A stretch of 64,000 nt of DNA, taken from Archangium sp. (lineage in GTDB: Bacteria; Myxococcota; Myxococcia; Myxococcales; Myxococcaceae). The DNA lies in the NCBI GenBank assembly GCA_047600485.1, contig JASGKS010000001.1, positions 6,592,259 to 6,656,258 on the forward strand, given 5' to 3'. The notes under the pieces are model-generated. The model worked only from the letters and a program-made list of their open reading frames with translations. It was not told the DNA's origin and made no database searches. The position numbers and the translations under genes are program-made. Positions 11,678 to 53,776 of this stretch are shown here, piece after piece. The stretch's first letter is position 1. Every line of letters starts with the position of its first letter.

Positions 11678-12510
11678 TTGACGTTCCCCGCGATGGAGAA
11701 GATCGGCAGGTACAGCGCAATCAGCACCACGCCGACGCTCAGCACTCCGGCCGCGGCGAGCGCGAGCGACGCGAACACGCGATACGTCTCCACGCGTCGA
11801 CGGCCTTCGAGCATCAACCGCGCCGCGAGGTTCGCGGTGACGACCGGCGTCTCGGCAGGCGCGTGGCGCTTCGACAACGCGACGAGCAAGCCGCGCTCCG
11901 CTTCTCCGAGCTTGAAGGTGCGCAGGCGTTCGAGCGGAGCAGCCTGCGTCGCCGCTCCGAAGAGACCGCGCGCCGCTTCGAGACTTCCGGCGCCGTACAC
12001 CGGCACCCGCAGGCGCGAGAAGAGCAGCACCGCGAAAATCGCGAGCGGGATTCCGATGATGCGCATCACCGACGCGAGCTCGTAGAGCAGCTGCGTCGGC
12101 ATCGGGAGCGTGCCGGCAAGCTGCGCGAGGGCCTGACCGTTGCCGGCGAACAAACCCACCAGCGCGAGCAACACGAACGGCCCGGCGAGCCCGACCTGCA
12201 ACACGCGACGACCGGCGATACGGGCTTGCTCCAGCTCGAGCGACGCCTCGAACGAGCGCGCGAGGTGCTCGGCGCGCTTCACGTCGTCGTCGCGCGACGC
12301 GAGCACGCGCACGAAGTCGTCGGTCACTTCGGCGGTGGTCGGTGCCTGCAACAGCAGCGCGGCCTCTTTGCAGCCCGCACGCGCCGCGCCTTCAGGGAGC
12401 GCATCGACGAGCCGATTCACGGCGTCGAGCGAGCTGATTCCCGAGCGGCGCAGCGCGATGAACTGTTGCAGGACGAGGGCGCGCGCTTCAGCGTCGGTGG
12501 GAGCGCTCAC
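11674..12510 (-). CDS. GspF/PilC-like platform protein
   Basis: The C-terminal LYLPIFSIAGNV matches the conserved GspF/PilC C-terminal motif (PIF..G), and the TM topology fits. Confidence 0.7.
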   Translation of the reverse strand: MSAPTDAEARALVLQQFIALRRSGISSLDAVNRLVDALPEGAARAGCKEAALLLQAPTTAEVTDDFVRVLASRDDDVKRAEHLARSFEASLELEQARIAGRRVLQVGLAGPFVLLALVGLFAGNGQALAQLAGTLPMPTQLLYELASVMRIIGIPLAIFAVLLFSRLRVPVYGAGSLEAARGLFGAATQAAPLERLRTFKLGEAERGLLVALSKRHAPAETPVVTANLAARLMLEGRRRVETYRVFASLALAAAGVLSVGVVLIALYLPIFSIAGNVK

Positions 12511-12938
12511 TCCAACGCCTCACGAATGGTGAGCGCTCCGGTGCGGCCGTCCCAGCGGTAGTCAGACGTGACGCCGTCGCCGTCGAGGTCACCTTCCGCG
12601 ATGGCGGTGAAGCTGCCGTCCTTCACTTCGACCGAGTAGCGGAAGCGCACCTCGCCCTGCGGAGCGACACCGAGCGATTTCCAACAGTCGGACACCGCGA
12701 ACGGCGTCGCCTTCTTCGGCACCTCGCCCGTCGCGGGGCACGCGAGGAAGGCGCCCGTGTCGCGCCAGTGTCGGAGTTCCTGATGCGCGATGGCCGCGAG
12801 AATGGCGTGCGCTTCGTCCGCACGCGCGCGGCGAATCAGCGCTTCACCGGTGGGCACCGTGATGGAGACGACGATGCCCATCACTGCGAGCACGAACGCC
12901 AGCTCGGCGATCGTGAAACCGCGGGCGCTACGACGCAT
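12507..12938 (-). CDS. Major (pseudo)pilin, type IV pilin-like
   Basis: MRRSARG|FTIAELAFVLAVMGIVV: prepilin peptidase site, Glu+5 and a hydrophobic alpha1 helix. 143 aa, first gene of the operon. Confidence 0.8.
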   Translation of the reverse strand: MRRSARGFTIAELAFVLAVMGIVVSITVPTGEALIRRARADEAHAILAAIAHQELRHWRDTGAFLACPATGEVPKKATPFAVSDCWKSLGVAPQGEVRFRYSVEVKDGSFTAIAEGDLDGDGVTSDYRWDGRTGALTIREALE

Positions 12939-13020: not shown

Positions 13021-14790
13021 TCAGCGACGGCGTCGCATCAGTCCGAGCAACATCAGCAACGGGAACGCGAGCGTCACTTCAGACGTGCAGCCGCAGCCGC
13101 TGGTGCCCTTGAGCCCACCACCGCCACCGCCACCGCCGGTGATTCCACCGCCGCCGGTGATGCCTGAGCCGCCGCCAGCTGCCGAGCCGCCACCCGTTCC
13201 GCTTCCGCCACCCGAGCCCGCGTCAGAGCCGCTACCGCCGCCGGTCGCCGAGCCACCGCCGGTCGCGCCACCGCCACCACCAGTCGCGCCGCCGCCACCG
13301 CCCATGCCCGCGTCCTGGCGAGGAGGACGTCCGCCGCCACCGCCGGTCGCGCCGCCACCGCCGCCAGTCGTGCCGCCGCCACCGCCAGTCGCACCGCCGC
13401 CACCGCCGGTCGCACCGCCGCCACCGCCGGTCGCTCCACCGCCACCGCCCGTCGCACCGCCGCCACCGCCCGTCGCACCGCCGCCACCGCCGGTCGCTCC
13501 GCCGCCGCCGCCCATGGGGCCGACGCCCGCGTCCCAGCTCACGTTGATGTTCAGCGAACCGACCGTCACGCACTCACCGCCGACCACCAGCGAATCGGTC
13601 GAGAAGTTCCACTCGCGGAAGGTCACGTTGCTCAGCGAGCCGACGTACTGACCGGCGAGCTCATCTTGCGTGACGGAGGTGACGGTCACGCTGCCCGACT
13701 GCGCGAGGAAGCGCTTCTGGCAGGTCATCGTGTTGCAGCGCCGCCGCATCATTGGGCACACCTCGCAGCTCGCGAAGTCGGTGGTGGCGTCGAACATCAC
13801 CGTGGTCGGCAGCATCAGCCCGAAGCCGAGGTAGGTCTCGACGGTGAGGAAATCCATCCCACCGTCGGCGGTCGCCGGAGGCTGCGTGTAGAAGTCGACG
13901 AACCCGAACTCGTCGATCGAGTCGTAACCCGCCGACGCGTTGGTGGTCGGCCAGCTCGCGAGCATCAAGCACGACGCGTCCATGCCCGAGCCCGCGTCGA
14001 CACCCGAGCCCGCATCGACACCCGAGTCAGGACGGCCCGCGTCGACGCCCGAGTCGGGGCGGCCCGCGTCCGTCACTCCGGCGTCGGAGCCCGTGCCGCC
14101 GTCGCTGCCGCTGCAGTTGTTGCGCGTGCTGCCGGCGTTGCGCGGGTTCGCTGAAATCACCGTGAAGTCGTTCGAGTTGTTGTCGGTCTCGGTGCAGCCA
14201 TTGCCGTTGCGCACTTCGACCGCCGCTGCGTTCAGCGCCGCCGCCGCGACCGCTTCGCTGCAGTTCGCGGTGCCGTAGCCGATGAAGTCGACGATGTTCG
14301 CTCCGGTGGGGCACGCGCCGCTCAGACCGGTGGAGTTGTTCACCAGCGCGACCTTCCCGTTGATGGCCGACATCGCGATGTTGTCGACCACGTCAGGCGT
14401 GACGGGCAACGCCGCGCCCATGCCGGTCGTCGTCTGCTCAGCGACGAGGAGATACTGGCCGGGCTGAATGGTGACGTTGGGCAGCGTGGTCGGGTTCCAC
14501 GAGGTGCCGGTCGCTCCGGCGTACTGCACCGACCAGCCGTTGACGTTGACCGCCACGCTGCCGCGGTTGAAGAGCTCGATGTAGTCGGTGTTCCAGATGG
14601 CCGTGCCGTTGCCGCCGCCGCCGTAGACCTGGCTGATGACGATGCCGCTCGAGAGCGCGTCGCGGCGGTTGATGACGTCGGCGTTGCCGCGCTTGCGACC
14701 CCACGGCTGCTCTTCGCCACCGCACGCGAAGTAGAGAATCGAGGCGACGGCTGCGACAGCGACGAGGCGAAGCGAACGGGAGTTCTTCAT
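13021..14790 (-). CDS. Secreted lipoprotein with lamin-tail domain (LTD), Gly-rich repeats and MYXO-CTERM sorting signal
   Basis: Signal/lipobox (ILYFAC), LTD signature (VISQVYGGGGNGTAIWNTDYIELFN...NGWSVQY), DAGRPDSGV repeats and (GGGGGAT)n repeats. It ends GCGCTSEVTLAFPLLMLLGLMRRRR, i.e. MYXO-CTERM-like. Confidence 0.8.
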   Translation of the reverse strand: MKNSRSLRLVAVAAVASILYFACGGEEQPWGRKRGNADVINRRDALSSGIVISQVYGGGGNGTAIWNTDYIELFNRGSVAVNVNGWSVQYAGATGTSWNPTTLPNVTIQPGQYLLVAEQTTTGMGAALPVTPDVVDNIAMSAINGKVALVNNSTGLSGACPTGANIVDFIGYGTANCSEAVAAAALNAAAVEVRNGNGCTETDNNSNDFTVISANPRNAGSTRNNCSGSDGGTGSDAGVTDAGRPDSGVDAGRPDSGVDAGSGVDAGSGMDASCLMLASWPTTNASAGYDSIDEFGFVDFYTQPPATADGGMDFLTVETYLGFGLMLPTTVMFDATTDFASCEVCPMMRRRCNTMTCQKRFLAQSGSVTVTSVTQDELAGQYVGSLSNVTFREWNFSTDSLVVGGECVTVGSLNINVSWDAGVGPMGGGGGATGGGGGATGGGGGATGGGGGATGGGGGATGGGGGATGGGGGTTGGGGGATGGGGGRPPRQDAGMGGGGGATGGGGGATGGGSATGGGSGSDAGSGGGSGTGGGSAAGGGSGITGGGGITGGGGGGGGLKGTSGCGCTSEVTLAFPLLMLLGLMRRRR

Positions 14791-14867
14791 GCGGGCGGCG
14801 TGCTTGTCACACGTGCGCATGGCTGATCAATCCCACGCGCGAAAAGCCCCGCGTTCGACGAAAACTC

Positions 14868-15989
14868 TCAGGCGCCGAGAACCTGCTTGGCCCGCGCGTA
14901 GTACGCGTCGCGGCTCGCCTTGCCGTTGTACCCACCGTTCACGCGCAACGTGATGGCGTCGAAGTTCCGCGCGTCGGCGTACGAGTTCAGGTTGCGGCTG
15001 TTCCAGAACCACTGGGCGATGCGGAAGCCGACTTCGGGAGTGGCAGCCAGCTCGGGGTGATTCACCAGGTCCACTCCGAGCGCGCGCGACGCGGCGGTGT
15101 AGTTGCTGCGGCCAGTGAGCTGAATCGGCCCGCGGCCCTTGTAGCGAACGCCATCGCCCGGCTGCGTGTTGCCCAAGTCGCGACGGCCTTCGTACGCGGC
15201 GCCCGACGCAATCTCTTCGAAGTACCGCAGCTGACCCGACTCGTGCGCGAGCTGCGCGAGGAACGCGGCCTGACGCAGCGGCGTGTTGATGCCGCCCTCG
15301 GCCATCGCGGCGTTCAAGTACGGCAGGTAGCGGTTGGCGTCAGCGGCCGAGAGGTTCGGCATGATGGCGCGCAGCTGCGCGGCGCTGATGCCACCGGTGG
15401 TCGGCCCGGGAACCGGACCCGTCGGCGTCACCGGAGTCGGCGCCGGCGTGCTCGAGCCACCCGGCAGGCGGAGCACCTGACCGGCGTAGATCATGTTCGG
15501 GTTGCTGATGCCGTTGAGCGACGCGAGCGCCGAGACCGTCGTGCCGTAGCGCGACGCGATGCCGGAGAGCGTGTCGCCCGAGCGCACGCGGTACGTCCCG
15601 CCACCACTCGTCGCCGGCGGAGCCGACGGCGCCGGCCCACCGCTGCCCGCGACGTTCAGGCGCTGGCCGACGTAGATGAGGTTCGGGTTGCGGATGCCGT
15701 TGCGCGCGGCGAGCGCGGAGACCGTGGTGCCGAAGCGCGAGGCAATCGACGAGAGCGTGTCGCCGCTGCGCACCGTGTACGACTGCGAGCCGCTGCTGCT
15801 GCTGCCGTTGTTCTGCGGCGCGGGCGCGGGCGTGCTCGAGAAACCGTCTGGCACCTGCAGCGATTGCCCGGCGTAGATGACGTTCGGGTTGCTGATGTGG
15901 TTCGTCTGCGCGAGCGCGGCGACCGACGTGTGGTACCGCGCGGCGATGCTGCTGAGGGTGTCACCGGAACGAATCGTGTACGTGCCCAT
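14868..15989 (-). CDS. Peptidoglycan hydrolase: 3x LysM + glycoside hydrolase family 19 (lysozyme/chitinase-like) domain
   Basis: Three YTVRSGDTLSSIA...IYAGQ LysM repeats, then GH19 signatures AAFLAQLAHESGQLRYFEE and IAQWFWN. Confidence 0.85.
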   Translation of the reverse strand: MGTYTIRSGDTLSSIAARYHTSVAALAQTNHISNPNVIYAGQSLQVPDGFSSTPAPAPQNNGSSSSGSQSYTVRSGDTLSSIASRFGTTVSALAARNGIRNPNLIYVGQRLNVAGSGGPAPSAPPATSGGGTYRVRSGDTLSGIASRYGTTVSALASLNGISNPNMIYAGQVLRLPGGSSTPAPTPVTPTGPVPGPTTGGISAAQLRAIMPNLSAADANRYLPYLNAAMAEGGINTPLRQAAFLAQLAHESGQLRYFEEIASGAAYEGRRDLGNTQPGDGVRYKGRGPIQLTGRSNYTAASRALGVDLVNHPELAATPEVGFRIAQWFWNSRNLNSYADARNFDAITLRVNGGYNGKASRDAYYARAKQVLGA

Positions 15990-16090
15990 GACCGGAGTTG
16001 TCCGCCCGGCCGCACGCCACGACTTTCGCGCGAACTGTCAAAGCAGCAGACAGATCAGCCGCATTTCCACCGCCCATTTCCGAGCGAATT

Positions 16091-17707
16091 TCAGGGCGGT
16101 GCGCCCGACAGAATCCACGCGCGCACGGTGTCGAGCTCCGCGGTGGTGAGGCCGCCGCCGGCCTTCGGCATCTGCGAGCCGAAGCACATGCCGCTGCCGG
16201 TGAGCTTGTTGAGCAGGTAGCTGTTGCTCAAGTCGTTGGGCACCACGCGCTTGCGGTTGGTGCACTGGCCCGAGGTGACGTTCACCAGGTTGGCGTAGCC
16301 CGTCGTCGCCGACGAGAGGTTGAGGCCTTCCGCCGGTCGAGCGCCACCATGACAACCGGAACCCGAGCACGAGTTCCGCACCCAGATGGGGTTCACGTCG
16401 GTCGCGTACGAACGCGGCGTGACGGCGCAGGTGCCCGAGGCGCTGCAGCTCGAGCCGCCGGGGCACGCGCCGCAGCTGCCACCACAACCGTCGCTGCCGC
16501 ACTGCTTGCCGCTGCAGCTCGGACTGCACCCGCACGTTCCTGCCGCGGAGCAACTTTGACCCGACATGCAGGTGCCGCACGAACCTCCGCAGCCGTCGTC
16601 GCCGCACACCTTCCCGACGCACGACGGCGTGCAGCCACACGCGCCCGCCGTGCTGCAGGTCAGCCCGCCCGCGCACGTTCCACACGAGCCTCCGCAACCA
16701 TCGGGCCCGCACGCCTTGCCCGCGCAGTCGGGCACGCACGCGCACGCGCCGGCGCCATTGCAGACCAGCGGCGCAGTGCAGGTTCCGCAGGAACCACCGC
16801 AGCCATCGTCACCACAGGTGCGGCCGGTGCAGCTGGGCGTGCAGGTCGCTCCGCAGCGCCCCGTCTGCGAGTTGCACGTCAGCATTCCCGCGCAGCTGCC
16901 GCACGAGCCGCCGCACCCATCGGGGCCGCACTGCCGCCCGGTGCAGCTGGGCGTGCACACGCACGCGCCGCTCGCATTGCACGTCTGTGGCGCTGCGCAC
17001 GCGCCGCAACTTCCGCCGCACCCGTCGGGCCCGCACGTCTTCCCCGAGCACGCGGGCAAGCACACGCACTGCCCGCTCGCACCACACACCCCGCTGGAAC
17101 AGACGCCGCAGCTTCCCCCGCACCCGTCGGCACCGCAGCTGCGCCCTGAACACTGCGCGGTGCACACGCACTGCCCGGTCGCGTTGCAGCTCGTGGTGCT
17201 GGCGCAGGTGCCGCAGGTGCCTCCGCAGCCGTCGCTGCCGCACGCACGACCCAGACAATCGGGCGTGCACGAGGTCGACGGCTGGCATTGGCCCGCGGCG
17301 GTGCAGTTGTCGCCGGGAGCGCACGCGCCGCAGCTGCCTCCACAGCCGTCGTCACCGCACGCACGGCCACTGCACGCCGCCACGCAGCTCGAGCTCGCGA
17401 GCGTCGTGAGGTGCGCGTCGAGCAGCGACTTCTCGCAGGCCTGCAGGCCGCCCGGAGGCATGGTGCCGTCGTCGAACACGCGCACGCGAATGCGCGACAT
17501 CCAGCGGCGCACGTCGGCGTCGGTGTCAAAGTCGACGCCGTCGGTGGCGCCCGCACGCGCCGCTCCGGTGACTTTGACCGAGTGACAGGTCAAACAGTTG
17601 CGGGTGATGACCTCGCGGCCATCGGCTGAGGGGCACGCGGTGCTCACGACCTGACCGGGACACCCCGAGAGGAGTGCCGCGGCCAGAAGGGCGGTGAGCG
17701 CGCGCAC
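16091..17707 (-). CDS. Lipoprotein with N- and C-terminal PSCyt1-like (CxxCH) modules flanking nine tandem 8-Cys repeats
   Basis: LLSGC lipobox and NCLTCH. Nine repeats of C-x-G-[KR]-x-CG-x-DGCGG[ST]CG-x-C...C..G.C.C.P[SD]. C-terminal SGCHGG...MPKAGGGLTTAELDTVRAWILSGAP. The ORF starts at 17752; an internal start near 17707 is preferred to avoid overlap. Confidence 0.7.
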   Translation of the reverse strand: MRALTALLAAALLSGCPGQVVSTACPSADGREVITRNCLTCHSVKVTGAARAGATDGVDFDTDADVRRWMSRIRVRVFDDGTMPPGGLQACEKSLLDAHLTTLASSSCVAACSGRACGDDGCGGSCGACAPGDNCTAAGQCQPSTSCTPDCLGRACGSDGCGGTCGTCASTTSCNATGQCVCTAQCSGRSCGADGCGGSCGVCSSGVCGASGQCVCLPACSGKTCGPDGCGGSCGACAAPQTCNASGACVCTPSCTGRQCGPDGCGGSCGSCAGMLTCNSQTGRCGATCTPSCTGRTCGDDGCGGSCGTCTAPLVCNGAGACACVPDCAGKACGPDGCGGSCGTCAGGLTCSTAGACGCTPSCVGKVCGDDGCGGSCGTCMSGQSCSAAGTCGCSPSCSGKQCGSDGCGGSCGACPGGSSCSASGTCAVTPRSYATDVNPIWVRNSCSGSGCHGGARPAEGLNLSSATTGYANLVNVTSGQCTNRKRVVPNDLSNSYLLNKLTGSGMCFGSQMPKAGGGLTTAELDTVRAWILSGAPP

Positions 17708-17708
17708 G

Positions 17709-19388
17709 TCAGTTGATGGGCACGGTGCAGGTGCACTGACCCGCGGCGCCACACGGCGTCAGCAGCGGCGTGAGGCACGACAGGCCCGAGCAGCACGACG
17801 TTCCGCCCGCCGAGCAGGTCTGGCCCTGGTTCACGCACATCGCCGCGGAGCACACGCCGAATTCGGCGCCCGCGGGAATGGCGCACGTGGTGCCGCTGCA
17901 GCAGTCAGACGACGCGGTGCAGATGTCGCCCAGGCCCTGGCAGACGGTGGGCGTGCCGCAGGTGCCAACGCCCGCGTCGTTGAGCGAACAAATCTGCGAG
18001 CAGCAGTCGTTCGAGAAGCTGCACATGCCTCCGTTGGCGCGGCAGAGCGGGCCCGCGTCGGGGAGCATGCCGCCGTCGGGCAACACCATGCCGCCGTCGG
18101 GCAGCGTGATGATGCCGCCGTCGGTGGTCTCCTCGAGCGGGCGGCACACGTTGCCGAGGCACAGCCCGCCGCAGCAGTCGCCGTCCATCGCGCACGTTCC
18201 ACCGAGCGGAGTGCAGCTCGCCGTGGTGCAGCGCAGGACACCGCCGTCGCCCGGCAAGCAGAGCGCGCCGTTGCAGCACTGGTCGCGGAACTGGCAGACG
18301 TCGCCCGCGGGAATGCAGCAGCCGGGCTGACCCGTGAAGCCGGTGGGGCACGAGCCGCTGATGCCGCCGAAGCAACGCGGAATGCCGGACATGTCGAGCT
18401 TGCAGACGTCCTTCATGCCGTTGCAGCAGTTCTGGCTGGCGTTGATCATCACCTCGCCGCCGTCGGGCAACTTCGCCGTGCCGCAGATGTTGCCCACGCC
18501 GTTGCACGACTGGCCGTTGTCGCAGCGACCGTCGGTGCACTGCACCGAGCCGTTGGGGTTCACGCCGCCGCCGCAGCACGCGTCATCGCCGGAGCACGAC
18601 GTACCCGTGAGCCGACAGCCGCCCGCCGGCAAGCACACCGTCGCGCCGGAGCCCGGGTCGAAGCAGGTGCGCGAGCAGCAGTTGCTTCCACCGCTGCAGG
18701 GATTGCCTTCCTGCGTGCAGCCGCCACCGCCGCCGCCGGTGATGGTGCGGCAGAAGCCGACGCCGCCGTCGTTCACGCTGCACGCACGCCCACAGCACTC
18801 GCCGTCGCTCGAGCAGCGGTCACCGTTGGGCTGGCAGTAGTACGCCTTGGCGCACGCGCCTGACTTGCAGAGCGTCGAGCAGCACTCGCCGTTGCCGTTG
18901 CACGAATCGCCGAGCACCTTGCACGCCCCGCCGCCGGGGATGATGGCGCACGTGTTGGCGTTGCAGACGCCGGTGCAGCACTCCGAGCCCGACTGGCACG
19001 CCTGGCCGAGCGCGGTGCACGCGGTGCCTCCGCAGGTGCCGTTCACACAGTTGGCGTTGCAGCAGTCGGTCGAGGTCGAGCAGCTCTGGCCCGGGTCGCG
19101 ACAGAACGTCGACGAGGTACAGACCGTGCCGTTGCAGGTTCCCGAGCAGCAGGGCTGCGAGGTGCTGCACGGGTCTCCCGCGGCCACGCACATGCCCGAG
19201 TCGGGCAGCATGCCTCCGCCGCCGGTCGTGCCTCCGCCCGTCGTGCCGCCGCCACCAGTGGTGCCTGCGCCCGTCCCACCTCCGGTGACGCCGCCGCCAT
19301 CGGTCCCACCGTCGGCATTCGTGTTGGGGTTGCAGTTACAGCCAGCGAGCACCACCACACAGGAGACGGCGAAGAGCGAACGGATCAT
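17709..19388 (-). CDS. Lipoprotein composed of ~13 tandem knottin-like (C-x6-C-x5-CC-x3-C-x4-C) modules
   Basis: Signal plus lipobox (VVLAGC|N), a Gly-rich linker, then repeated CxxxGxxCxxxxxCCSGxCxxxxC units. The start was moved to MIRSLF. Confidence 0.7.
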   Translation of the reverse strand: MIRSLFAVSCVVVLAGCNCNPNTNADGGTDGGGVTGGGTGAGTTGGGGTTGGGTTGGGGMLPDSGMCVAAGDPCSTSQPCCSGTCNGTVCTSSTFCRDPGQSCSTSTDCCNANCVNGTCGGTACTALGQACQSGSECCTGVCNANTCAIIPGGGACKVLGDSCNGNGECCSTLCKSGACAKAYYCQPNGDRCSSDGECCGRACSVNDGGVGFCRTITGGGGGGCTQEGNPCSGGSNCCSRTCFDPGSGATVCLPAGGCRLTGTSCSGDDACCGGGVNPNGSVQCTDGRCDNGQSCNGVGNICGTAKLPDGGEVMINASQNCCNGMKDVCKLDMSGIPRCFGGISGSCPTGFTGQPGCCIPAGDVCQFRDQCCNGALCLPGDGGVLRCTTASCTPLGGTCAMDGDCCGGLCLGNVCRPLEETTDGGIITLPDGGMVLPDGGMLPDAGPLCRANGGMCSFSNDCCSQICSLNDAGVGTCGTPTVCQGLGDICTASSDCCSGTTCAIPAGAEFGVCSAAMCVNQGQTCSAGGTSCCSGLSCLTPLLTPCGAAGQCTCTVPIN

Positions 19389-19468
19389 GGTTTCTCCTTG
19401 GGAGTGAGGGTGTGCCTCGCAGCGCGGAGGATCAGGCAAACGTCCGTCGATCATGAGAGAAGTGCCCC

Positions 19469-20353
19469 GTGGCACCCCTTCTCGTTCTTCTGGTCGGAGA
19501 GCTGACCAGCCCGCTCAAGCCGCACGTCGAAGCTGCGTTGCCGGCCGCGTTCGTCGCTCCGCTTCCTGAAGTGTCGACCGGGAGTGACGCCCCTCCGGGC
19601 CGCAACGTGGTGTGGGTGACGATGACCAGCCCCGACGAGGTGGTGCTGACGCTCCACACCGCGCGCATTCCCGGAGACCTGCGCCGCGAGCTGCGCTTCA
19701 ACAAGAGCGACTCGCCGGCCGCGCGCGGGAAGACCATCGCCTTCGCGCTCTCGGTGCTGGCGAAAGAACGAGAGGCCGACCTCGCTGCGCTGCCTCCTGA
19801 GCCCGGGCCGCCTCCGCCCGTCGCGCCCGCGCCTCCCGCCGAGAAGGTGTGGGAAATCGAAGCGCGCGGCGTCGGCACGCTGAGTGTCGGCGAAGGTGCG
19901 CTCGGCGGCGGAGGCCAGGTGCTCGCGCATCGCTTGCTTCCGTTCGGTCTGAGCACCGGGCTCGGCGTGGAGCTCAACGCGTCAGGCGCGAAGGAGACGC
20001 AGCTCACGCAAGGCGGCGCGTGGGCCGAGGTGAACCTGCGCTTCGTGGGGCCCATCATCGTGCCGCGGCTGTCGCTGGGCGTGGGCGCGATGGTGAACGT
20101 GCTGGTCGGAAAGCAGAACGTGATGAGCACGGTGTGGCTGCCGCTGTTCCGCATCGCGGTCGACGCGACGTGGCGCTTCTTCGAGGGTCACGGCATCACG
20201 CTCGGGCTGGCGAGCCATCTGACGACCGCGGGCCTGCCCGTCGGCACGACCAACGGCACGGGGATGGGGATGGGCATGGGAAACACGAAGAACATGGGGA
20301 CGTTGGGCCCGCTGTGGATGCGCGTGGAGCTCGGGTATTCGCTGGCGCTGTGA
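19469..20353 (+). CDS. Hypothetical protein (two domains joined by a Pro-rich linker; Gly-rich beta C-terminal half)
   Basis: GTG start. It sits upstream of, and co-directional with, the ECF sigma gene. Confidence 0.5.
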   Translation: MAPLLVLLVGELTSPLKPHVEAALPAAFVAPLPEVSTGSDAPPGRNVVWVTMTSPDEVVLTLHTARIPGDLRRELRFNKSDSPAARGKTIAFALSVLAKEREADLAALPPEPGPPPPVAPAPPAEKVWEIEARGVGTLSVGEGALGGGGQVLAHRLLPFGLSTGLGVELNASGAKETQLTQGGAWAEVNLRFVGPIIVPRLSLGVGAMVNVLVGKQNVMSTVWLPLFRIAVDATWRFFEGHGITLGLASHLTTAGLPVGTTNGTGMGMGMGNTKNMGTLGPLWMRVELGYSLAL

Positions 20354-20385
20354 CCGCCTGATTCCCGGGGCTGAAAGGCACACCC

Positions 20386-21021
20386 GTGTTGATGCTGCTC
20401 GCCACGCCACTTCGTCTCGTCGCGGACATGCCCGACGACGCCGCGCTCATCGACGCGGTGGCGCGAGGCGACCGGCGGGTCTCGGTGGCGCTCTACGACC
20501 GGCTGCGCACGGTGATGACGCGGGTGGTGAAGCGGGTGGCTCCGCGCGCGACTGATCATTCTGATCTCGTGCAGCAGGCCTTCGTGGAGCTGATCATTTC
20601 TCTGCGCGAACGGCCGACGGTGCGCTCGCTCGACGCGTGGGCGGCGACGGTGACGGCGCGCGTGGTGTTCCACCGGTTGCGTCGCGAGAAGCTCGAGCAC
20701 CGCTTCGCCGCGGTCGAGGCCGACGGTGAAGTGATGACCGCGGTGCCGGCGCTCTCGTCGGCGAGCGATTCGCACCAGGTGGCCGCGCAGCGCGAGCTGC
20801 TCGAGAAGGTCTCGTCGGTGATGGGGAGCCTCAACTCCGGGCGCATGCAGGTGTTCGTGCTGCACGACGTGCACGGCTACGAGCTCAAGGAGATCGCCGA
20901 GATTCTGGGCCTCACCGTCGCCAACGCGCAGACGCGCCTGGTGCGGGGACGCAAGGAGCTGCACGAAGCGGTCGCCCATGACGAAGCGTTGAGCAGTGCG
21001 CTGCGGGAGGTGTTGCCATGA
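20386..21021 (+). CDS. ECF-type RNA polymerase sigma-70 factor
   Basis: Region 2 (DLVQQAFVELI) and region 4 HTH (LKEIAEILGLTVANAQTRLVRGRKEL). Confidence 0.85.
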   Translation: MLMLLATPLRLVADMPDDAALIDAVARGDRRVSVALYDRLRTVMTRVVKRVAPRATDHSDLVQQAFVELIISLRERPTVRSLDAWAATVTARVVFHRLRREKLEHRFAAVEADGEVMTAVPALSSASDSHQVAAQRELLEKVSSVMGSLNSGRMQVFVLHDVHGYELKEIAEILGLTVANAQTRLVRGRKELHEAVAHDEALSSALREVLP

Positions 21022-21965
21022 ACGCCACGTACGACCGGGCGGTGGCTGAGCTGCTTCGCCGGCAGTCCGACGCCGTCCAGGCGGGGCCCGATGCAGCTGA
21101 GGTACGCAACCAACTGGTGAGCGCCATCGACGATGCGATCGTGGCGAATGCTCCGAAGACCGCCTCGAAGGTGAAGAAGGCGCGGCATGACACCGAGCCC
21201 GAGACGCGTTCGTCGGGAGCACTGCGCTGGGTGTTGCTCGGCGCGGCGGCGATGCTGGTGGTGGTGCTCGGAGCGGCGTGGCTGATGAAGCGCATGTCTC
21301 CCGACACGACGCAGCCGGTGCCGCCTCCGGCGCCGATGGAGATCGCCATCGTCGGCGGTGGGCGGCTGGTGAAGGGCCCGAGCGCGCGGGTGGACGTGAG
21401 CGGTGACGGCGCGGTGGCGACGCTGCGCATGGGTGAGGTGGCGGCTGAGGTGTACGAGCAGGAGCTGCGCATCGACACCACCGACGCGCAGATTTTCGTG
21501 CGGCAGGCGAAGGTGTCGCTCGAGACCGGAGCGGGCTGCGACGGCCGCGTGCGCGTCACCGTGCAGGAAGGCAGCGCGCGCGTGAAGGTCGCAGCGAAAG
21601 AAGTGACGCTGGAGGAAGGCGACGTGTGGCCGAGCTGCGTGGGCGTGAAGGACGTGCCGAGCGAGCCGGTGAAGCCTCCGCCCGCGAAGGTCGAGAAGCC
21701 GATGACGCTCGATGAGCAGAACGACTTGTTCCAGCGAGCTGTCGAGCTGCAGCGCGAGGGCGCGGTACTCGACGCGGCGGCGATGCTCGAGCGCATCGTG
21801 CAGAAGGCGCCGGAGTCTCCGCTGGCCGAGCCCGCGATGGCGCAGGAGCTGCGGTGGTTGATGGTGAACCACCGGGATCAAGCGACGGTGGTGGCGCGCC
21901 GGTATCTGCGGAAGTTCCCGATGGGCAGCGCGCGGGCCGACGCCGAGAAGCTCGTCGCCCCCTGA
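21018..21965 (+). CDS. Anti-sigma factor (single-pass, FecR-like periplasmic domain)
   Basis: ATGA overlap with the sigma gene. N-terminal cytoplasmic segment, a TM helix (LLGAAAMLVVVLGAAWL) and a FecR-like beta domain. Confidence 0.7.
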   Translation: MNATYDRAVAELLRRQSDAVQAGPDAAEVRNQLVSAIDDAIVANAPKTASKVKKARHDTEPETRSSGALRWVLLGAAAMLVVVLGAAWLMKRMSPDTTQPVPPPAPMEIAIVGGGRLVKGPSARVDVSGDGAVATLRMGEVAAEVYEQELRIDTTDAQIFVRQAKVSLETGAGCDGRVRVTVQEGSARVKVAAKEVTLEEGDVWPSCVGVKDVPSEPVKPPPAKVEKPMTLDEQNDLFQRAVELQREGAVLDAAAMLERIVQKAPESPLAEPAMAQELRWLMVNHRDQATVVARRYLRKFPMGSARADAEKLVAP

Positions 21966-22055: not shown

Positions 22056-22475
22056 TTGGCTCTCGTGTCGCGGCTCACCTTTCCAACGCTCGTGTTGCTC
22101 TGCGTGGCGGCTTGCCAGAACCAGGCGTGCCCTTCGACCGCCGGCGGCAAGTGTGATCCGCGCAACGCGAATTGTCCGAAGGGTTACGTCTGTGCGCTCG
22201 CTGAGGTCTGCACCCGCACGTGTGAGCAGACGAGTGACTGCTGGGTGAAGGTCGAAGATGGCTGCCGGTACACGTATCTCCCGGGTCAGCGCTTGCCCGA
22301 CGGCGGCGTGTTCAGTGATCAGACGACGGAAGACGGCATCTGCCCCGAAACCAAGTTGATGGAGTGCGTCTCGGGTTACTGCCAGCGCGCTGCGTGCGCG
22401 GAGCAGAGCTGCGACTACGACATCTACGGACCGTCGGAATACAAGGGCAACCGCTCGATGGGGCCTGAGTCATGA
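22056..22475 (+). CDS. Small Cys-rich lipoprotein
   Basis: Signal plus lipobox (LLCVAAC) and 16 Cys. Confidence 0.6.
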   Translation: MALVSRLTFPTLVLLCVAACQNQACPSTAGGKCDPRNANCPKGYVCALAEVCTRTCEQTSDCWVKVEDGCRYTYLPGQRLPDGGVFSDQTTEDGICPETKLMECVSGYCQRAACAEQSCDYDIYGPSEYKGNRSMGPES

Positions 22476-22786
22476 GGGTGCTCTCGGTTCTTCTCTGCGC
22501 CGTCGTCCTCGCCGGCTGCGGAGTGTTCGCCATCCCCGGCACGCCGTGCACCAAGCACGAACAGTGTGGGCTGAAAGATGGCTACTGCTCGCGCGCGGAG
22601 ATCTGCACGCGTGAATGCGGTGACAGCAAGCCGTGCCCTGAGGGGTCGAGCTGCTTCGCTGGCGGAACTCGCTCGGTGTGCCTGCCGAACTGCGACACCG
22701 ACGCGGATTGTCTGCCGAACTTCCGCTGCGCTGATGAGAAGGTGTGCCGCGTGAAGTCGCCGCTCGATCCTCCTCCGATGCAGTGA
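22472..22786 (+). CDS. Small Cys-rich lipoprotein
   Basis: Signal plus lipobox (VVLAGC|G) and 12 Cys. ATGA overlap with the upstream gene. Confidence 0.6.
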   Translation: MRVLSVLLCAVVLAGCGVFAIPGTPCTKHEQCGLKDGYCSRAEICTRECGDSKPCPEGSSCFAGGTRSVCLPNCDTDADCLPNFRCADEKVCRVKSPLDPPPMQ

Positions 22787-50389: not shown

Positions 50390-51112
50390 CTAGCCTGCCA
50401 GCTGGCGCACGATCGCTGAATAGGCACGAATCTCCTCAGCAACCAACGAGCGACGATTGCGAAACCGGATCAAGATCTCTTTGATTGCTCGCGTTGCCGC
50501 TGGCGAACGATTCGCGACCTGCGTTGCGACGGCCCGCGCGTGACTCATCAACTGGTCCTCCTTGAGGACTGCATTGACTAAGCCAGCCTGAACGCCCTCC
50601 TCTGCCGTGAACCGACGCCCAGTGAGCAAGATCTCGGCACCGCGAAGAACTCCCATTCGCTCAAGCGCCAAGAACGATCCACCCATCCCAGGAATAATGC
50701 CAAGCGACAACTCCGGCTGCGAAAACCACGCTCCGTGTGCAGCGAAGACGAGATCTGACGCGAGCACCATTTCGCAACCACCGCCAACCGCCGGACCATT
50801 TACGGCGGCAATGAGCGGCACGGGCACTCTCTGAAGCTCACGCGCGAGTTGTTCAAAAGCCCGATGCGCATGAATCCATTCTTTGCTTGTCTGAGACGCC
50901 CGCTCGGATCGGTCGGCTCCAGAACAGAAGGCCCGGCCCTCGGCACTTAGGATCACAGCCCGTGCACTCCGGTCACGGCGCAGGCGGGATAGAAAACTGC
51001 ACACCGTCCGACACATCTGAACCGAGAGCGCGTTGCGAACGGAAGGCCGATTGAGTCTAATTTCTGCAACGCCCTCAGATGGCCAAGTCAGAATCGCGAG
51101 TTCGTTCGTCAT
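50390..51112 (-). CDS. Enoyl-CoA hydratase/isomerase (crotonase)-family protein
   Basis: Crotonase fold motifs (AAVNGPAVGGGCEM; FSQPELSLGIIPGMGG). Reduced GC. Confidence 0.85.
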   Translation of the reverse strand: MTNELAILTWPSEGVAEIRLNRPSVRNALSVQMCRTVCSFLSRLRRDRSARAVILSAEGRAFCSGADRSERASQTSKEWIHAHRAFEQLARELQRVPVPLIAAVNGPAVGGGCEMVLASDLVFAAHGAWFSQPELSLGIIPGMGGSFLALERMGVLRGAEILLTGRRFTAEEGVQAGLVNAVLKEDQLMSHARAVATQVANRSPAATRAIKEILIRFRNRRSLVAEEIRAYSAIVRQLAG

Positions 51113-51960
51113 TATCTTGCCCCAATCGCTAGCACGACAGCTCCAGCCAAAATCATAGTGGCGCCCAACGCGAGCGGTATTGAGGGCCGCTCTTTGAGCA
51201 AGAAGACACCTAAGACGACGTTGAGCAAGATGCTCGATCGCTTCAACGCGACAACGTAGCCTGTAGTTGCCTCAGGACGCTCAAGTGCCAAGACCATAAA
51301 AAGCAAGGATCCCGCTGCCGCAACTCCGACACTCAAAAGTGAAGGTGAAAAGACAGAAGACCGCCGAATTTCAATTCGCGCAAGAAAGATTGACGCAACT
51401 ACTAAACTAGCGACAGCCAAAAATCCCACCAAGCATCGACTTCGTGCGACTTCTTTCAATAGGAGCCCGTCGATGGCCCACATCATCGCGATGCCGATCC
51501 CCGCCCCCATCCATTGTCCACGTGGAATCTCGCGCTTTTCTTGCTGATGACGACCGAGCACAAATGTACCCAAAGCCACAACACCACATCCGATCGTCAG
51601 GGATGAGTCATAGAGCGATGTTCCGCGAAGGAGTTCAATCGTCACGACAAAGACAATGGATGTTCCAAGAAGTGGGGTCACGACAGAGACGCCGGCGTCG
51701 CGAATAGTTTTCGTAAGAAGATGATTCGAGGCTAACTCGAGGACTACATGCGCAACAAGGAGAAGCGGGAGTTCAGCGATATCTCGAAAAGACTCTTTCC
51801 GAGCAATCGCAACAACAAAGTAGACCAGTGAAGCCGTCGCAAACATCACACCATTAATTTGGCGTTGAGGAAAACCCTCGGACGCACGCTTATTCAAGCC
51901 ATTGCGAGCGGCGTCAAATACAGCACTTAGCACTGCCAACAAAACCCAAACAGACATCAC
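51112..51960 (-). CDS. EamA/DMT-superfamily transporter
   Basis: 10 TM helices with duplicated EamA halves. Low GC. Confidence 0.8.
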   Translation of the reverse strand: MMSVWVLLAVLSAVFDAARNGLNKRASEGFPQRQINGVMFATASLVYFVVAIARKESFRDIAELPLLLVAHVVLELASNHLLTKTIRDAGVSVVTPLLGTSIVFVVTIELLRGTSLYDSSLTIGCGVVALGTFVLGRHQQEKREIPRGQWMGAGIGIAMMWAIDGLLLKEVARSRCLVGFLAVASLVVASIFLARIEIRRSSVFSPSLLSVGVAAAGSLLFMVLALERPEATTGYVVALKRSSILLNVVLGVFLLKERPSIPLALGATMILAGAVVLAIGAR

Positions 51961-53045
51961 GCCACCGCGCGATGCAATGCATGAACAAGCGTCGGCCCGT
52001 CCAACTCTCCAAGGTAATCAATAATAATTCGCGTTGAGTCTCGAACGACCGAATGAGCGAGTTGCTTATCGAATGCGCGACCGGGACTACTCAAACGCCA
52101 AAGATATTCAATTCTCGAGGTCAGCGCTCCACCAAAGGTGAGCAGTTGACCCGGCACAATTCTAATCGAACGGCGGATCATCTGTTCGGCAAGCATCTGT
52201 GCCGCCTCCCGGTCAACCGGAAGCGAGTTGTTGTGCGCAAGAAGGAATGTCGCACCAGAGGGAATTCGAACCAAGTCGGAATTCTCGAACTCATTGCCAA
52301 TAGTGGTGGCGATTACCACTCCCCCGCGCTCAAGACACTCCGCCGAGAATTTCCCCGGAACTGACGGCAAAATATCAGGTTGCGCATCAGTAAACGCAAG
52401 ATCGGCGACAGCAAGTTCGACGCTCCGGCTGCGGAGCTCGCGAACGACGTCGGCACCGAGCGCTCCAGCGGCACCAACAACCACGGCTTGGCGAGTGTCT
52501 GGCGCCAATCTGTCTAGCGCGGCAATGACACCAGTCGCTGTGTACGATGACTTACCCCCGCACCCCCCTTTTTCTCGTGCAATGCCCAACACGTGCTCCG
52601 TGTGCCGGTGAAGTATGTCAGCAACACGGGCGAAGCGCCCAAAGTCCGGAGTGAGCTTCAGGATACCGCCCATTGCATTAAGTCTTGAGCCGATTGTTGC
52701 GAAGAGTTCATCGGCGATGGCTGTGAAACTTGGATTCGCCGGGTCTCTGAGAATCAAGTCAAACTCATTCGTCTTCGCACGAATTACGCACCTTCCACCT
52801 CCAACGCGAGAGCTATGCAGACCGGGCACCGAGGCAACTGACAATCGGCCCACTGCGATGTTGATTAGGCGGTTCTTGATTGCGCTCTCAAAAGAGGCGA
52901 GCGAGCGCACCGTCGCATCGGCCTCTTCGTCCGAGCATCTCGCATCAACAAGGCGCGTGCCACCATAGTGGTACACCACATCACTTCGTCCCTCATGAGC
53001 CAGCCATACGGAAGCGATGCGTGTGTCAAACATTTCTACTTCCAT
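51957..53045 (-). CDS. Glu/Leu/Phe/Val-dehydrogenase-family-like protein (atypical GGGR in place of GGGK)
   Basis: YGGTRLV ... EADATVRSLA ... RVGGGRCVI resembles the ELFV-DH N-domain, followed by a VVVGAAGALGADVV Rossmann fold. Confidence 0.55.
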   Translation of the reverse strand: MEVEMFDTRIASVWLAHEGRSDVVYHYGGTRLVDARCSDEEADATVRSLASFESAIKNRLINIAVGRLSVASVPGLHSSRVGGGRCVIRAKTNEFDLILRDPANPSFTAIADELFATIGSRLNAMGGILKLTPDFGRFARVADILHRHTEHVLGIAREKGGCGGKSSYTATGVIAALDRLAPDTRQAVVVGAAGALGADVVRELRSRSVELAVADLAFTDAQPDILPSVPGKFSAECLERGGVVIATTIGNEFENSDLVRIPSGATFLLAHNNSLPVDREAAQMLAEQMIRRSIRIVPGQLLTFGGALTSRIEYLWRLSSPGRAFDKQLAHSVVRDSTRIIIDYLGELDGPTLVHALHRAVA

Positions 53046-53776
53046 TCACTGCCTCCTTCAGAAATCGCGAGAAGCGCAGAGATGATTGCCCGACGAGCCC
53101 CTCGAAACGAGTCGATCGATCGAAGATATGTTCGTGCGCTCTCGTCCGCGGCATCATCGCTGACAATCTTTACACACGCAAAAGGAATGCCGAACCGAGA
53201 ACACGTCTGCGCAACGGCAGACGCCTCCATGTCGAGTGCAATTGCGTCCAATGAGATTCCCGCCCGAATGCTCTCACGGGCCGCAGTTGAAGCGACGAAC
53301 TTGTCGCCAGACAGGAGCAGTCCTCCGTACGAAATCGAGGCGACATTCGACAATGAAGACTTAACAATCTGCGCGAGCTTGATGTTTGCGCTAAACACAA
53401 GATCGCGATGATCGGACATTGCCTGATATTGAAGAGTGCGCTCTCCAGGGCGCGCCAGCCACGTTACGGAAGGAGAGATTCCGCCGAAGTCATGTTGGGC
53501 AAACGTCGTAGGAATCAGAATCGAGCCTACCTGGTGCTTTTCCGTGAGCGCCGCGCAGTATCCGAAATTCAGAACACATCGAAGATCAGAAGCCCCAGCC
53601 GCGAATGCGATGGCTGAGGCCGCTGCAACCTTGCCAACGCCGCTCAGCACAATGCACGACCGGGTCGGAATTGCATCTCGCTCGGGCGCGGTACGAAGAT
53701 CAACAACGCGAATCGATCCGGGCAGGTCCACCCCATCGAGTTCCTCGCGCATGGCCACCTGAATTATGGAGGTCAT
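53036..53776 (-). CDS. PNP_UDP-family nucleosidase (MTA/SAH-nucleosidase-like)
   Basis: ALDMEASAVAQTC...FACVKIVSD matches the MTAN EMEGAA...RxISD core. Confidence 0.7.
   Translation of the reverse strand: MTSIIQVAMREELDGVDLPGSIRVVDLRTAPERDAIPTRSCIVLSGVGKVAAASAIAFAAGASDLRCVLNFGYCAALTEKHQVGSILIPTTFAQHDFGGISPSVTWLARPGERTLQYQAMSDHRDLVFSANIKLAQIVKSSLSNVASISYGGLLLSGDKFVASTAARESIRAGISLDAIALDMEASAVAQTCSRFGIPFACVKIVSDDAADESARTYLRSIDSFRGARRAIISALLAISEGGSEWK

Follow-up and report, generated by a model that had tools for sequence, protein, structure and literature searches.

Analysis of a 64-kb window of the Archangium sp. contig JASGKS010000001.1 (the window being the whole stretch of DNA that was analysed) identified a minus-strand gene for a lipoprotein precursor carrying 13 tandem modules that resemble knottins, the disulfide-rich domains built on an inhibitor cystine knot (ICK). 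The case that the modules are knottin-like, which draws on their cysteine framework, profile similarity, predicted fold and deduced disulfide pairing, is solid but indirect. We therefore describe a fold that is already known, here in a new architecture (13 modules in a row behind one lipid anchor), in a new host group and probably in a new role. For that role we give about an even chance to a non-enzymatic scaffold or binding protein of the envelope or cell surface, a chain of knottin-like modules on a lipid anchor; the lipoprotein is most likely not a venom-like toxin precursor. Judged from sequence searches, the array represents a large, unannotated and mostly bacterial superfamily. Knottins are valued as ultra-stable scaffolds for drugs and imaging and are central to work on venom evolution, and they have been handled almost wholly as eukaryotic single-domain peptides. 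The gene is laid out below; modules were delimited by their cysteine pattern, and the framework gives the numbers of residues between successive cysteines.

17709..19388, minus strand: whole gene, 559-amino-acid lipoprotein precursor (open reading frame list and translation; stop codon 17709-17711).
19394..19399, minus strand: Shine-Dalgarno sequence AAGGAG, read from the sequence, 5 nucleotides upstream of the ATG at 19388.
19338..19388, minus strand: residues 1-17, signal peptide and lipobox (MIRSLFAVSCVVVLAG/C) with Cys17 as the predicted lipidation site, from the sequence.
19191..19337, minus strand: residues 18-66, low-complexity Gly/Thr/Asp tether of about 49 residues containing Cys19 at +3 (sequence; predicted local distance difference test score, pLDDT, below 50).
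19119..19190, minus strand: module 1, residues 67-90, framework 6-5-0-3-4.
19032..19103, minus strand: module 2, residues 96-119, framework 6-5-0-3-4 (pLDDT 84-88; Conotoxin_I2 at E = 2.3e-4 in isolation).
18948..19019, minus strand: module 3, residues 124-147, framework 6-5-0-3-4 (part of the two-module model).
18852..18923, minus strand: module 4, residues 156-179, framework 6-5-0-3-4 (part of the two-module model).
18750..18836, minus strand: module 5, residues 185-213, framework 6-5-0-3-9.
18633..18719, minus strand: module 6, residues 224-252, framework 6-5-0-3-9.
18522..18617, minus strand: module 7, residues 258-289, framework 6-5-0-11-4.
18372..18506, minus strand: module 8, residues 295-339, atypical framework 6-18-0-6-9 with a loop 2 of 18 residues (best-conserved module; no Pfam match; pLDDT 43-60).
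18318..18350, minus strand: two extra cysteines, C347 and C357 (CPTGFTGQPGC), directly ahead of Cys I of module 9 and each present in 145 of 145 members.
18228..18317, minus strand: module 9, residues 358-387, framework 6-5-0-4-9.
18144..18215, minus strand: module 10, residues 392-415, framework 6-5-0-3-4.
18045..18143, minus strand: residues 416-448, long flexible hinge with LPDGG repeats (6-64 residues across the family; pLDDT below 50; DNA repeat period 21).
17958..18044, minus strand: module 11, residues 449-477, framework 6-5-0-3-9.
17850..17942, minus strand: module 12, residues 483-513, framework 6-5-0-4-10 (aligns with the first Xt3a ICK domain).
17751..17837, minus strand: module 13, residues 518-546, framework 6-6-0-4-7 (aligns with the second Xt3a ICK domain).
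17709..17750, minus strand: residues 547-559, C-terminal tail with C552-x-C554, and the stop codon (both cysteines in 144 of 145 members).

The initial annotation, made from the sequence of the window, had placed the gene at the correct coordinates and had described a lipobox and a Gly-rich linker ahead of about 13 modules, all of which can be seen in the translation; 85 of the 559 residues (15%) are cysteines. It had also given the modules a constant C-x6-C-x5-CC-x3-C-x4-C spacing, which holds in part. A loop 1 of six residues and the CC doublet occur in all 13 modules, as does the general ICK framework (C-C-CC-C-C with loops in the ICK range), but the exact spacing is found in 5 of 13; loop 2 has five residues in 11 modules, six in module 13 and 18 in module 8, and loops 4 and 5 vary from 3 to 11 and from 4 to 10 residues, respectively. 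A strict regular expression finds 12 clean modules in the open reading frame, which is far above chance, and a single occurrence elsewhere in the six-frame translation of the window; the 13th module is the one at residues 295-339 with the expanded loop 2. The same six-cysteine framework is that of the ICK peptides Hv1a, MVIIA, SO3, TxVII, Sth1a, SOTI-III, wrightide and PAFP-S, and the core of Hv1a is exactly C-x6-C-x5-CC-x3-C-x4-C. Outside the cysteines, the modules and these peptides have in common a Gly in loop 1, a Ser/Thr-Gly pair that follows the CC doublet and a Gly-x that precedes Cys VI.

Profile searches led to the same group of peptides. A module profile of 27 positions, built from 70 modules and searched against 177,635 PDB sequences, gave 46 matches at E values of 1 or less, all of them small disulfide-rich peptides; 44 were recognised by name as ICK peptides or knottins, and the names of the other two, p21 and p28, were not interpretable. 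The matches include the remipede toxin Xt3a (E = 4.4e-7), omega-atracotoxin-Hv1a (E = 1.9e-6) and SOTI-III (E = 5e-4), as well as omega-conotoxins, huwentoxin, imperatoxin, nemertide, wrightide, bleogen, PAFP-S and Alo3. When the whole protein was compared with PDB sequences by phmmer, it matched Xt3a, a double-ICK toxin (7rz3; E = 1.2e-6), with modules 12 and 13 aligning to both of its domains and to the linker between them. Twelve toxins, with the sequences of Hv1a, Xt3a and 6px7 taken from the PDB search, scored 14-30 bits against the module hidden Markov model, whereas their shuffles with cysteines held fixed averaged 1-7 bits and 0-1 of 500 reached the real score. By this comparison, the likeness to real knottins goes beyond cysteine spacing.

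In Pfam, single canonical modules matched Conotoxin_I2, Toxin_12, Toxin_18, Toxin_19, Toxin_21, Toxin_29, Omega-toxin, Conotoxin, Cys_Knot_tox and UPF0506. Module 12 in isolation scored 21.6 bits for Toxin_12 (cut-off, 21) and all other single modules stayed under threshold; the whole protein reached 15 bits for the same family. NCBIfam held no family for the lipoprotein at E values of 1 or less, and since neither Pfam nor NCBIfam has a model for the lipoprotein family, its members fall into an annotation gap. The only Pfam matches outside toxins and knottins were three weak ones, to Dickkopf_N, the Dickkopf C-terminal subdomain and LEAP-2. The initial annotation had suggested a comparison with Dickkopf-like proteins, and this did not stand up: Dickkopf_N (PF04706) gave no whole-protein match at E values of 1 or less, and module 2 alone scored 15.4 bits against a cut-off of 25 (E = 0.025), with the other two families scoring below that in the single-module scan. 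Dickkopf, colipase and MIT1 are likewise small disulfide-rich domains with a beta-hairpin, but they have ten cysteines in two lobes, whereas the units of the lipoprotein have six; their Foldseek matches were weak (probability 0.6-0.87, root-mean-square deviation [rmsd] about 10-14 Å over about 80 columns), the Dickkopf structures lying at 9.6-13.6 Å.

The predicted structures are consistent with a knottin fold. The full-length AlphaFold2 model, for which 29 homologues were used, has an average pLDDT of 67, with modules 2-5 at 82-94 and low values in the tether, in the long hinge and in some stretches of modules 7 and 8; a second model, of modules 3 and 4 only, was made with 49 sequences (pLDDT 75). 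In both models, DSSP assigned to canonical modules a short predicted 3-10 turn ahead of the CC doublet and two strands joined by a turn at Cys V/VI, and the modelled units thus have the beta-hairpin at these two cysteines that is typical of knottins. Searched against the PDB with Foldseek, the full-length model had no match at an E value of 1e-3 or less, as expected for domains of only 25 residues; its list was headed by Xt3a (probability 0.94) and contained many ICK toxins at 0.5-0.7 Å over about 25 residues. For the model of modules 3 and 4, 11 of 13 matches were single ICK toxins, the rest being LEAP-2 and colipase, and the best toxins superposed at an rmsd of 0.4-1.2 Å over 24-27 residues, among them U3-scytotoxin-Sth1a (0.4 Å over 24 residues) and hairpinless Hv1a (0.9 Å; TM-score of 0.79 on the target).

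A separate line of evidence comes from the way in which cysteines have been lost. Disulfide partners are expected to be lost together, and we therefore collected degenerate modules with four cysteines from the arrays of 337 family and superfamily proteins, which contain 966 intact modules alongside. Cys I and IV were missing together in 15 distinct cases, Cys II and V in 4 and Cys III and VI in 0; the 7 cases in other classes were mostly long-loop modules mis-parsed by the pattern. Three ICK pairs, out of 15 possible pairs, thus account for 19 of the 26 cases, which is far from a random distribution (nominal binomial p = 8e-9, the cases not being fully independent). Two family members, P0040 and P0105, lack precisely Cys I and Cys IV of module 6. 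This pattern is the one to be expected from a I-IV, II-V and III-VI connectivity, in which III-VI is the pair left by elimination after the other two. The suggestion that the units are ICK-like is therefore supported by profile searches, predicted structure and co-loss patterns.

These data also bear on the possibility that the modules are a cysteine-rich repeat of some other fold, whether laddered, EGF- or granulin-like or paired across modules, and that the knottin likeness is shared spacing over-read by AlphaFold. Such a fold would sit well with the whole protein reaching the threshold of no curated knottin family, with the weak LEAP-2, colipase and Dickkopf matches in the same lists and with the atypical character of modules 7 and 8 and of the extra cysteine pairs. 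It does not sit well with the joint loss of I and IV or II and V, with no III and VI case and almost no other pairs, a signal taken from sequences without recourse to any model; nor with a knottin similarity that reaches past the cysteines, with superposition on solved ICK structures at 0.4-0.9 Å or with PDB profile matches that, save p21 and p28, are recognised as knottins. We consider a different fold improbable. Loss of cysteines in pairs that match disulfide partners is also the reason for rejecting a metallothionein-like reading, in which 83 free cysteines would be kept reduced to bind Cu or Zn as a giant metal or redox buffer of the envelope. The cysteine content of 15% and the co-occurrence of some related arrays with MopE-type putative metal-binding repeats speak for such a buffer, but the protein is exported into the oxidising periplasm, follows a strict ICK framework with no CxC/CxxC clusters and is predicted with high confidence to fold compactly, and we regard the idea as extremely improbable.

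Some cysteines lie outside the modules. C347 and C357 are presumably joined by a disulfide. The mature protein begins with C-x-C, of which the first Cys is predicted to be lipidated and the second is Cys19 (19332-19334), and also ends with C-x-C (17727-17735). In one relative, P0026, C552 and C554 are both gone and, because they were lost together, they are not partners of module cysteines. With Cys19, two residues past the predicted lipidation site, the number of cysteines in the mature protein is odd; 103 of 127 lipobox-bearing relatives have a Cys at +3. Given the odd count and the joint loss in P0026, Cys19 is without an obvious partner, and it could form an intermolecular disulfide or be a free thiol.

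The array is conserved module by module. A search of 5.8 billion proteins returned 352 homologues; the top matches listed are mostly full length (about 520-600 residues), and all of those that are named are 'hypothetical protein' from Archangium, Myxococcaceae or Myxococcota. Among species-representative genomes, 160 loci were identified. The top 80 belong to Archangium, Hyalangium, a Vulgatibacter metagenome-assembled genome (MAG) and Myxococcaceae/Archangiaceae MAGs, apart from a single short contig assigned to Pseudomonadota and three bins that carry only the label delta-proteobacteria; among the same 80, nine genomes have two copies. Carriers that can be cultured include Archangium violaceum (JRI60_29235), A. 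gephyra and Hyalangium versicolor. A clean split into two paralogue subfamilies was considered and was not produced by average-linkage clustering. When 145 non-redundant members were aligned, all 82 array cysteines proved to be retained, each in no fewer than 143 sequences, and this near-universal retention makes the 13 modules positional orthologues. Loop 1 has six residues in at least 99% of the relatives at each module position and the CC doublet is invariably there; loop 2 has five residues in most modules, and loops 4 and 5 differ by module position (3, 4, 6 or 11 and 4, 7, 9 or 10 residues, respectively), most being largely fixed per position across orthologues. At the DNA level, no tandem repeat was found at the module period and only the low-complexity linkers repeat, the tether among them with short repeats of period 15-33; the array is thus old and diverged rather than recently expanded.

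The gene is real and under purifying selection. It has a G+C content at third codon positions of 90.5%, in a window of about 68% G+C, and its ratio of nonsynonymous to synonymous substitution rates (dN/dS) against the closest orthologues is 0.24-0.35. The N termini of homologues line up with MIRSLF..., in agreement with the ATG start at 19388; the open reading frame list also holds a longer, GTG-initiated version that extends to 19475. The many overlapping open reading frames in other frames are a usual by-product of high G+C. No promoters or terminators were found in a scan of 15800-19700, and an alignment of the 200 nucleotides 5' of 18 orthologues contained no conserved upstream motif.

Sequence conservation outside the cysteines is uneven. 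It is highest in modules 6-9 (0.6-0.79), where near-invariant motifs include CKLDSSGIPRCFGG, CPTGYTG and CQFxDQCC, and lies at 0.38-0.47 in modules 1-3, 10, 11 and 13. The linkers between modules 2 and 3, 4 and 5, 6 and 7, 7 and 8, and 11 and 12 are 4-5 residues long, and at least 139 of the 145 members agree on the length of each; those between modules 3 and 4 (4-19 residues) and modules 10 and 11 (6-64 residues) are variable, and modules 5 and 6 are linked by a Gly-rich 10-mer. From the fixed linkers, the two variable hinges and the Gly-rich link, we suggest that the array is divided into the segments of modules 1-3, 4-5, 6-10 and 11-13. All modules have a net charge of 0 to -3, and no dibasic or other conserved processing sites were found in the 4-5-residue linkers.

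At the N terminus, MIR-SLFAVSCVVV-LAG/C satisfies the lipobox pattern [LVI][ASTVI][GAS]C, which is present in 127 of 145 family members, and family tethers have a median length of 37 residues and are 35% Gly. After Sec export and lipidation, the array would be oxidised in the periplasm to about 41 disulfides, comprising 39 in the modules, C347-C357 and C552-C554, and the lipoprotein would be sorted to the outer membrane. In Myxococcus xanthus, Lys at +2 directs lipoproteins to the inner membrane and Ala at +7 to the matrix (PMC3222651). An outer-membrane location is suggested here by the lack of both, with Asn at +2 and Thr at +7; Lys at +2 occurs in only 7 of 127 relatives. The array would then form a protease-resistant, segmented and semi-rigid filament, perhaps about 30 nm long on a rough estimate of 2-2.5 nm for each of the 13 modules, in which the conserved central modules 6-9 might provide a specific interaction site and the outer modules act as spacers. 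We favour a scaffold or binder because the modules are neutral or acidic, processing sites are lacking, selection is purifying, conservation peaks in the central modules, one subfamily keeps its gene in a fixed housekeeping context and adhesin-type fusions occur in the superfamily.

The resemblance to venom peptides raises the alternative of a polyprotein toxin precursor or predation weapon, an array that is cut into knottin peptides or shed on vesicles and kills prey via membranes or channels. The host is a predatory myxobacterium, the modules are like omega-atracotoxin, omega-conotoxins, the antifungal PAFP-S and Alo3 and the bivalent Xt3a, and a LysM-GH19 hydrolase gene lies near the lipoprotein gene in the window. 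Known ICK peptides, however, are single, soluble and usually cationic, have 25-40 residues and are cut from animal, plant or fungal propeptides, whereas here 13 modules, neutral to acidic and not cationic, are fused in one bacterial protein with linkers of fixed length and no sign of processing. Each module position is conserved and under purifying selection, unlike a diversifying arms-race locus, the lipid anchor is conserved, and GH19 adjoins the gene in just one other locus. We therefore hold this alternative to be quite improbable. The natural tandem ICK peptides, of which only four were known in 2023, have two domains each and are venom components (PMC9950431). Those of this kind that we compared, Xt3a of the remipede Xibalbanus and DkTx and Hi1a of spiders, have short semi-rigid linkers like those of the lipoprotein; they act bivalently on ion channels, whereas the lipoprotein has 13 modules and is lipid-anchored and bacterial. 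A venom-type tandem ICK toxin was rejected as an identification, as a lipid anchor replaces the propeptide, the charge is 0 to -3 and processing sites are missing.

A second functional alternative is a multi-headed inhibitor shield, in which the modules block proteases or hydrolases and guard the envelope from the cell's own or competitors' lytic enzymes. Classic inhibitors of proteases and amylases are found among the knottins, the module profile matches SOTI-III (E = 5e-4) and the amylase inhibitor wrightide, and several modules have conserved basic residues directly after Cys I (CKVLG, CRLTG, CRANG); tandem arrays are, moreover, typical of inhibitors. No canonical reactive-site loop was recognised, however, no Pfam inhibitor family scored, the peak of conservation is the atypical module 8 with its flanks and not a repeated reactive loop, and no protease gene is consistently adjacent. 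We judge such a shield to be rather improbable; of the alternatives to a scaffold or binder it is nevertheless the likeliest, followed by a different disulfide fold, then by a toxin polyprotein and last by a thiol metal buffer.

Several points weigh against an envelope scaffold or binder made of knottin modules. With the whole protein, Conotoxin_I2 reached 26.0 bits over five stretches, below its gathering score of 27, and because this score is just under threshold, and because either homology or convergence could account for the likeness, the array is not assigned to a curated toxin family. AlphaFold was trained on ICK structures, and the central region, the proposed functional site, is modelled worst (pLDDT 43-60). 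The I-IV, II-V and III-VI topology is itself deduced from patterns of loss. The full dN/dS range of 0.24-0.54 is not very low. Neighbourhood searches turned up no conserved operon, partner or ligand, and a SOTI-III-type protease inhibitor has the same framework. To our knowledge, M. xanthus, the source of the sorting rules, does not carry the lipoprotein gene. Members are called 'hypothetical' by all sources, and the role is one that we infer.

Among described systems, the lipoprotein fits the definition of the SCREPs (secreted cysteine-rich repeat proteins) collected in ScrepYard in having tandem disulfide-rich domains after a signal peptide, with the lipid anchor falling outside the SCREP concept. 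Many bacterial SCREPs are known, most of them with unrecognised domains (PMC6262176, PMC9885460). In the SCREP surveys we found no mention of the lipoprotein family or of Myxococcota knottin arrays, and a search of the literature on knottins in myxobacteria or on bacterial knottin arrays gave nothing relevant. The KNOTTIN database treats bacterial knottins as a predicted group without experimental structure (PMC5753296). Myxobacterial envelope proteins also include the TraA-type TIGR04201 repeats, likewise tandem and cysteine-rich, and the repeats of TraA have been proposed to form a rigid stalk (PMC3325183), a mechanical role that parallels the one we suggest for the unrelated array of the lipoprotein. 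TraA has a PA14 head and a MYXO-CTERM tag, whereas the lipoprotein has an N-terminal lipid anchor and no head domain. Membership in TIGR04201 was rejected: no NCBIfam match was obtained at E values of 1 or less, and the CGxDGCGGxCGxC of a neighbouring gene is absent from the lipoprotein.

The initial annotation had considered tandem knottin arrays unusual in bacteria. This holds for literature and annotation but not for sequence space. Among 1.84 billion cluster representatives, a two-module profile matched 1,148 proteins at E values of 1e-3 or less and 276 at 1e-10 or less, the 1,148 being protein clusters at 50% identity. With such a yield, tandem knottin-like arrays are better described as unannotated than as rare. 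Among 150 matches listed, 147 were new proteins, and 142 of these have 2-16 canonical modules; the new array proteins have 161-2,095 residues, about half with a lipobox-like N terminus. Where a source is named, it is a MAG of Deltaproteobacteria, Myxococcota, Myxococcales or Polyangiales or an unclassified 'bacterium', and the entry is called 'hypothetical protein'; the one exception is a choanoflagellate protein, described below. Domains fused to related arrays are of extracellular or adhesin types, namely MopE repeats, TSP3_bac, FecR, Big_1, Invasin_D3, beta-propellers and Glucodextran_B. Conotoxin_I2 was matched at an E value of 1e-4 or less in 17 of 45 superfamily members scanned; relatives whose modules are more uniform exceed its cut-off with ease (best E = 1.4e-19).

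It is possible, though in our view unlikely, that the myxobacterial ICK arrays are true homologues of the eukaryotic toxin and antimicrobial knottins, and perhaps even their evolutionary reservoir or source. The scores of animal and plant knottins against the bacterial module profile, well above those of cysteine-fixed shuffles, are compatible with this, as are the presence of the module in at least 1,148 clusters and its 13 copies in a choanoflagellate sulfatase. If it is true, knottins would have arisen within extracellular envelope proteins of several domains, as one of their modules, rather than as toxins in their own right. Such a reading would echo that of bacterial (actinobacterial and myxobacterial) defensins, which are reported to resemble ancient invertebrate-type defensins (PMC8819291). 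One protein in the EukProt collection, P0206 of the choanoflagellate Stephanoeca diplocostata, has 1,403 residues with a sulfatase domain, 13 C-x6-C-x5-CC modules and Pro/Thr-rich linkers; it represents either a module common to bacteria and eukaryotes, or a transfer, or contamination. Apart from the question of homology, the family may represent rod proteins of the bacterial envelope that form a new, disulfide-knotted class. With a 13-module bacterial lipoprotein that stands for more than a thousand unannotated protein clusters, the knottin fold would extend to a new architecture and a new role as envelope scaffold or binder. Such a lipoprotein would reveal a part of the myxobacterial cell surface that is so far uncharacterised, its relatives would offer a rich natural collection of acidic knottins able to fold in a bacterial periplasm, and the origin of ICK domains would become directly testable.

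The genes around the lipoprotein gene had been named correctly in the initial annotation, LysM, GH19 and LTD (lamin-tail domain) being recovered by Pfam and the second Cys-repeat protein and a MYXO-CTERM-like tail being visible in the sequence. The second Cys-repeat lipoprotein, a protein with three LysM domains and GH19 (Pfam) and the LTD protein are encoded downstream on the same strand. The neighbouring features are as follows.

16091-17752, minus strand: second Cys-repeat lipoprotein-like gene, nine tandem repeats of about 35 residues around CGxDGCGGxCGxC, 82 cysteines.
13021-14820, minus strand: LTD protein (Pfam) with long (GGGGAT)n Gly-rich repeats.
12507-12938, minus strand: small open reading frame of 143 amino acids beyond the LTD gene, with a weak N_methyl pilin-like motif (E = 8.6e-4; 19.2 bits against 21.2).
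19469-21965, plus strand: divergent upstream trio of a 294-amino-acid open reading frame resembling an outer membrane protein, an extracytoplasmic function (ECF) sigma factor (20386-21021; Sigma70_r2/r4/ECF) and a probable anti-sigma factor of 315 amino acids.
22056-22786, plus strand: two small open reading frames (139 and 104 amino acids) with lipoprotein-like N termini and several cysteines, found near the orthologue in loci L004, L006 and L020.

The GTG start of the second Cys-repeat gene overlaps the 3' end of the lipoprotein gene by 44 nucleotides, and its true start is for that reason probably later. Its product, which matched nothing in Pfam or NCBIfam, has an N-terminal region with one CxxCH haem-c-type motif (residue 53) and a distinct C-terminal domain; a homologue lies upstream of the lipoprotein orthologue in L007 and is nearly absent in L004. 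The LTD protein ends in GCGC-hydrophobic-RRRR, which resembles a MYXO-CTERM sorting tag and matched no NCBIfam model.

The initial annotation had read these genes together as a functional block of surface and predation proteins, and this we reject. No neighbour common to the whole family emerged when 12 window neighbours were compared by tblastn with 82 related loci, or when flanking open reading frames were clustered without bias. Pieces of the neighbourhood recur in the closest relatives only, and it differs even among orthologues that are 68-81% identical. GH19 adjoins an orthologue in one other locus only, and the LTD and pilin-like genes do so in one, the open reading frame at 12507-12938 being kept beside the LTD gene in L004. 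In contrast to this variability, 22 loci, including those of cultured Archangium and Hyalangium strains, have the gene in a fixed SLT-SelA-HNH-[gene]-ParA-DnaJ-RluA context; these are more distant orthologues in housekeeping surroundings, and the constancy of the context favours a vertically inherited chromosomal gene over a mobile weapon cassette. The ECF trio adjoins the lipoprotein orthologue in three other loci, divergently in L004 and co-directionally in L012 and L013, which hints at, but does not prove, a regulatory link between the lipoprotein gene and the trio.

Elsewhere in the window, a co-directional block of five genes on the minus strand (50390-55890) stands out by its G+C content of about 56%, compared with 65-70% in the remainder. 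Its products are an enoyl-CoA hydratase, an EamA transporter, a protein of 362 amino acids, a PNP_UDP_1 phosphorylase and a protein in which a patatin-like phospholipase is joined to an ABC substrate-binding domain, and the block is probably a horizontally acquired island.

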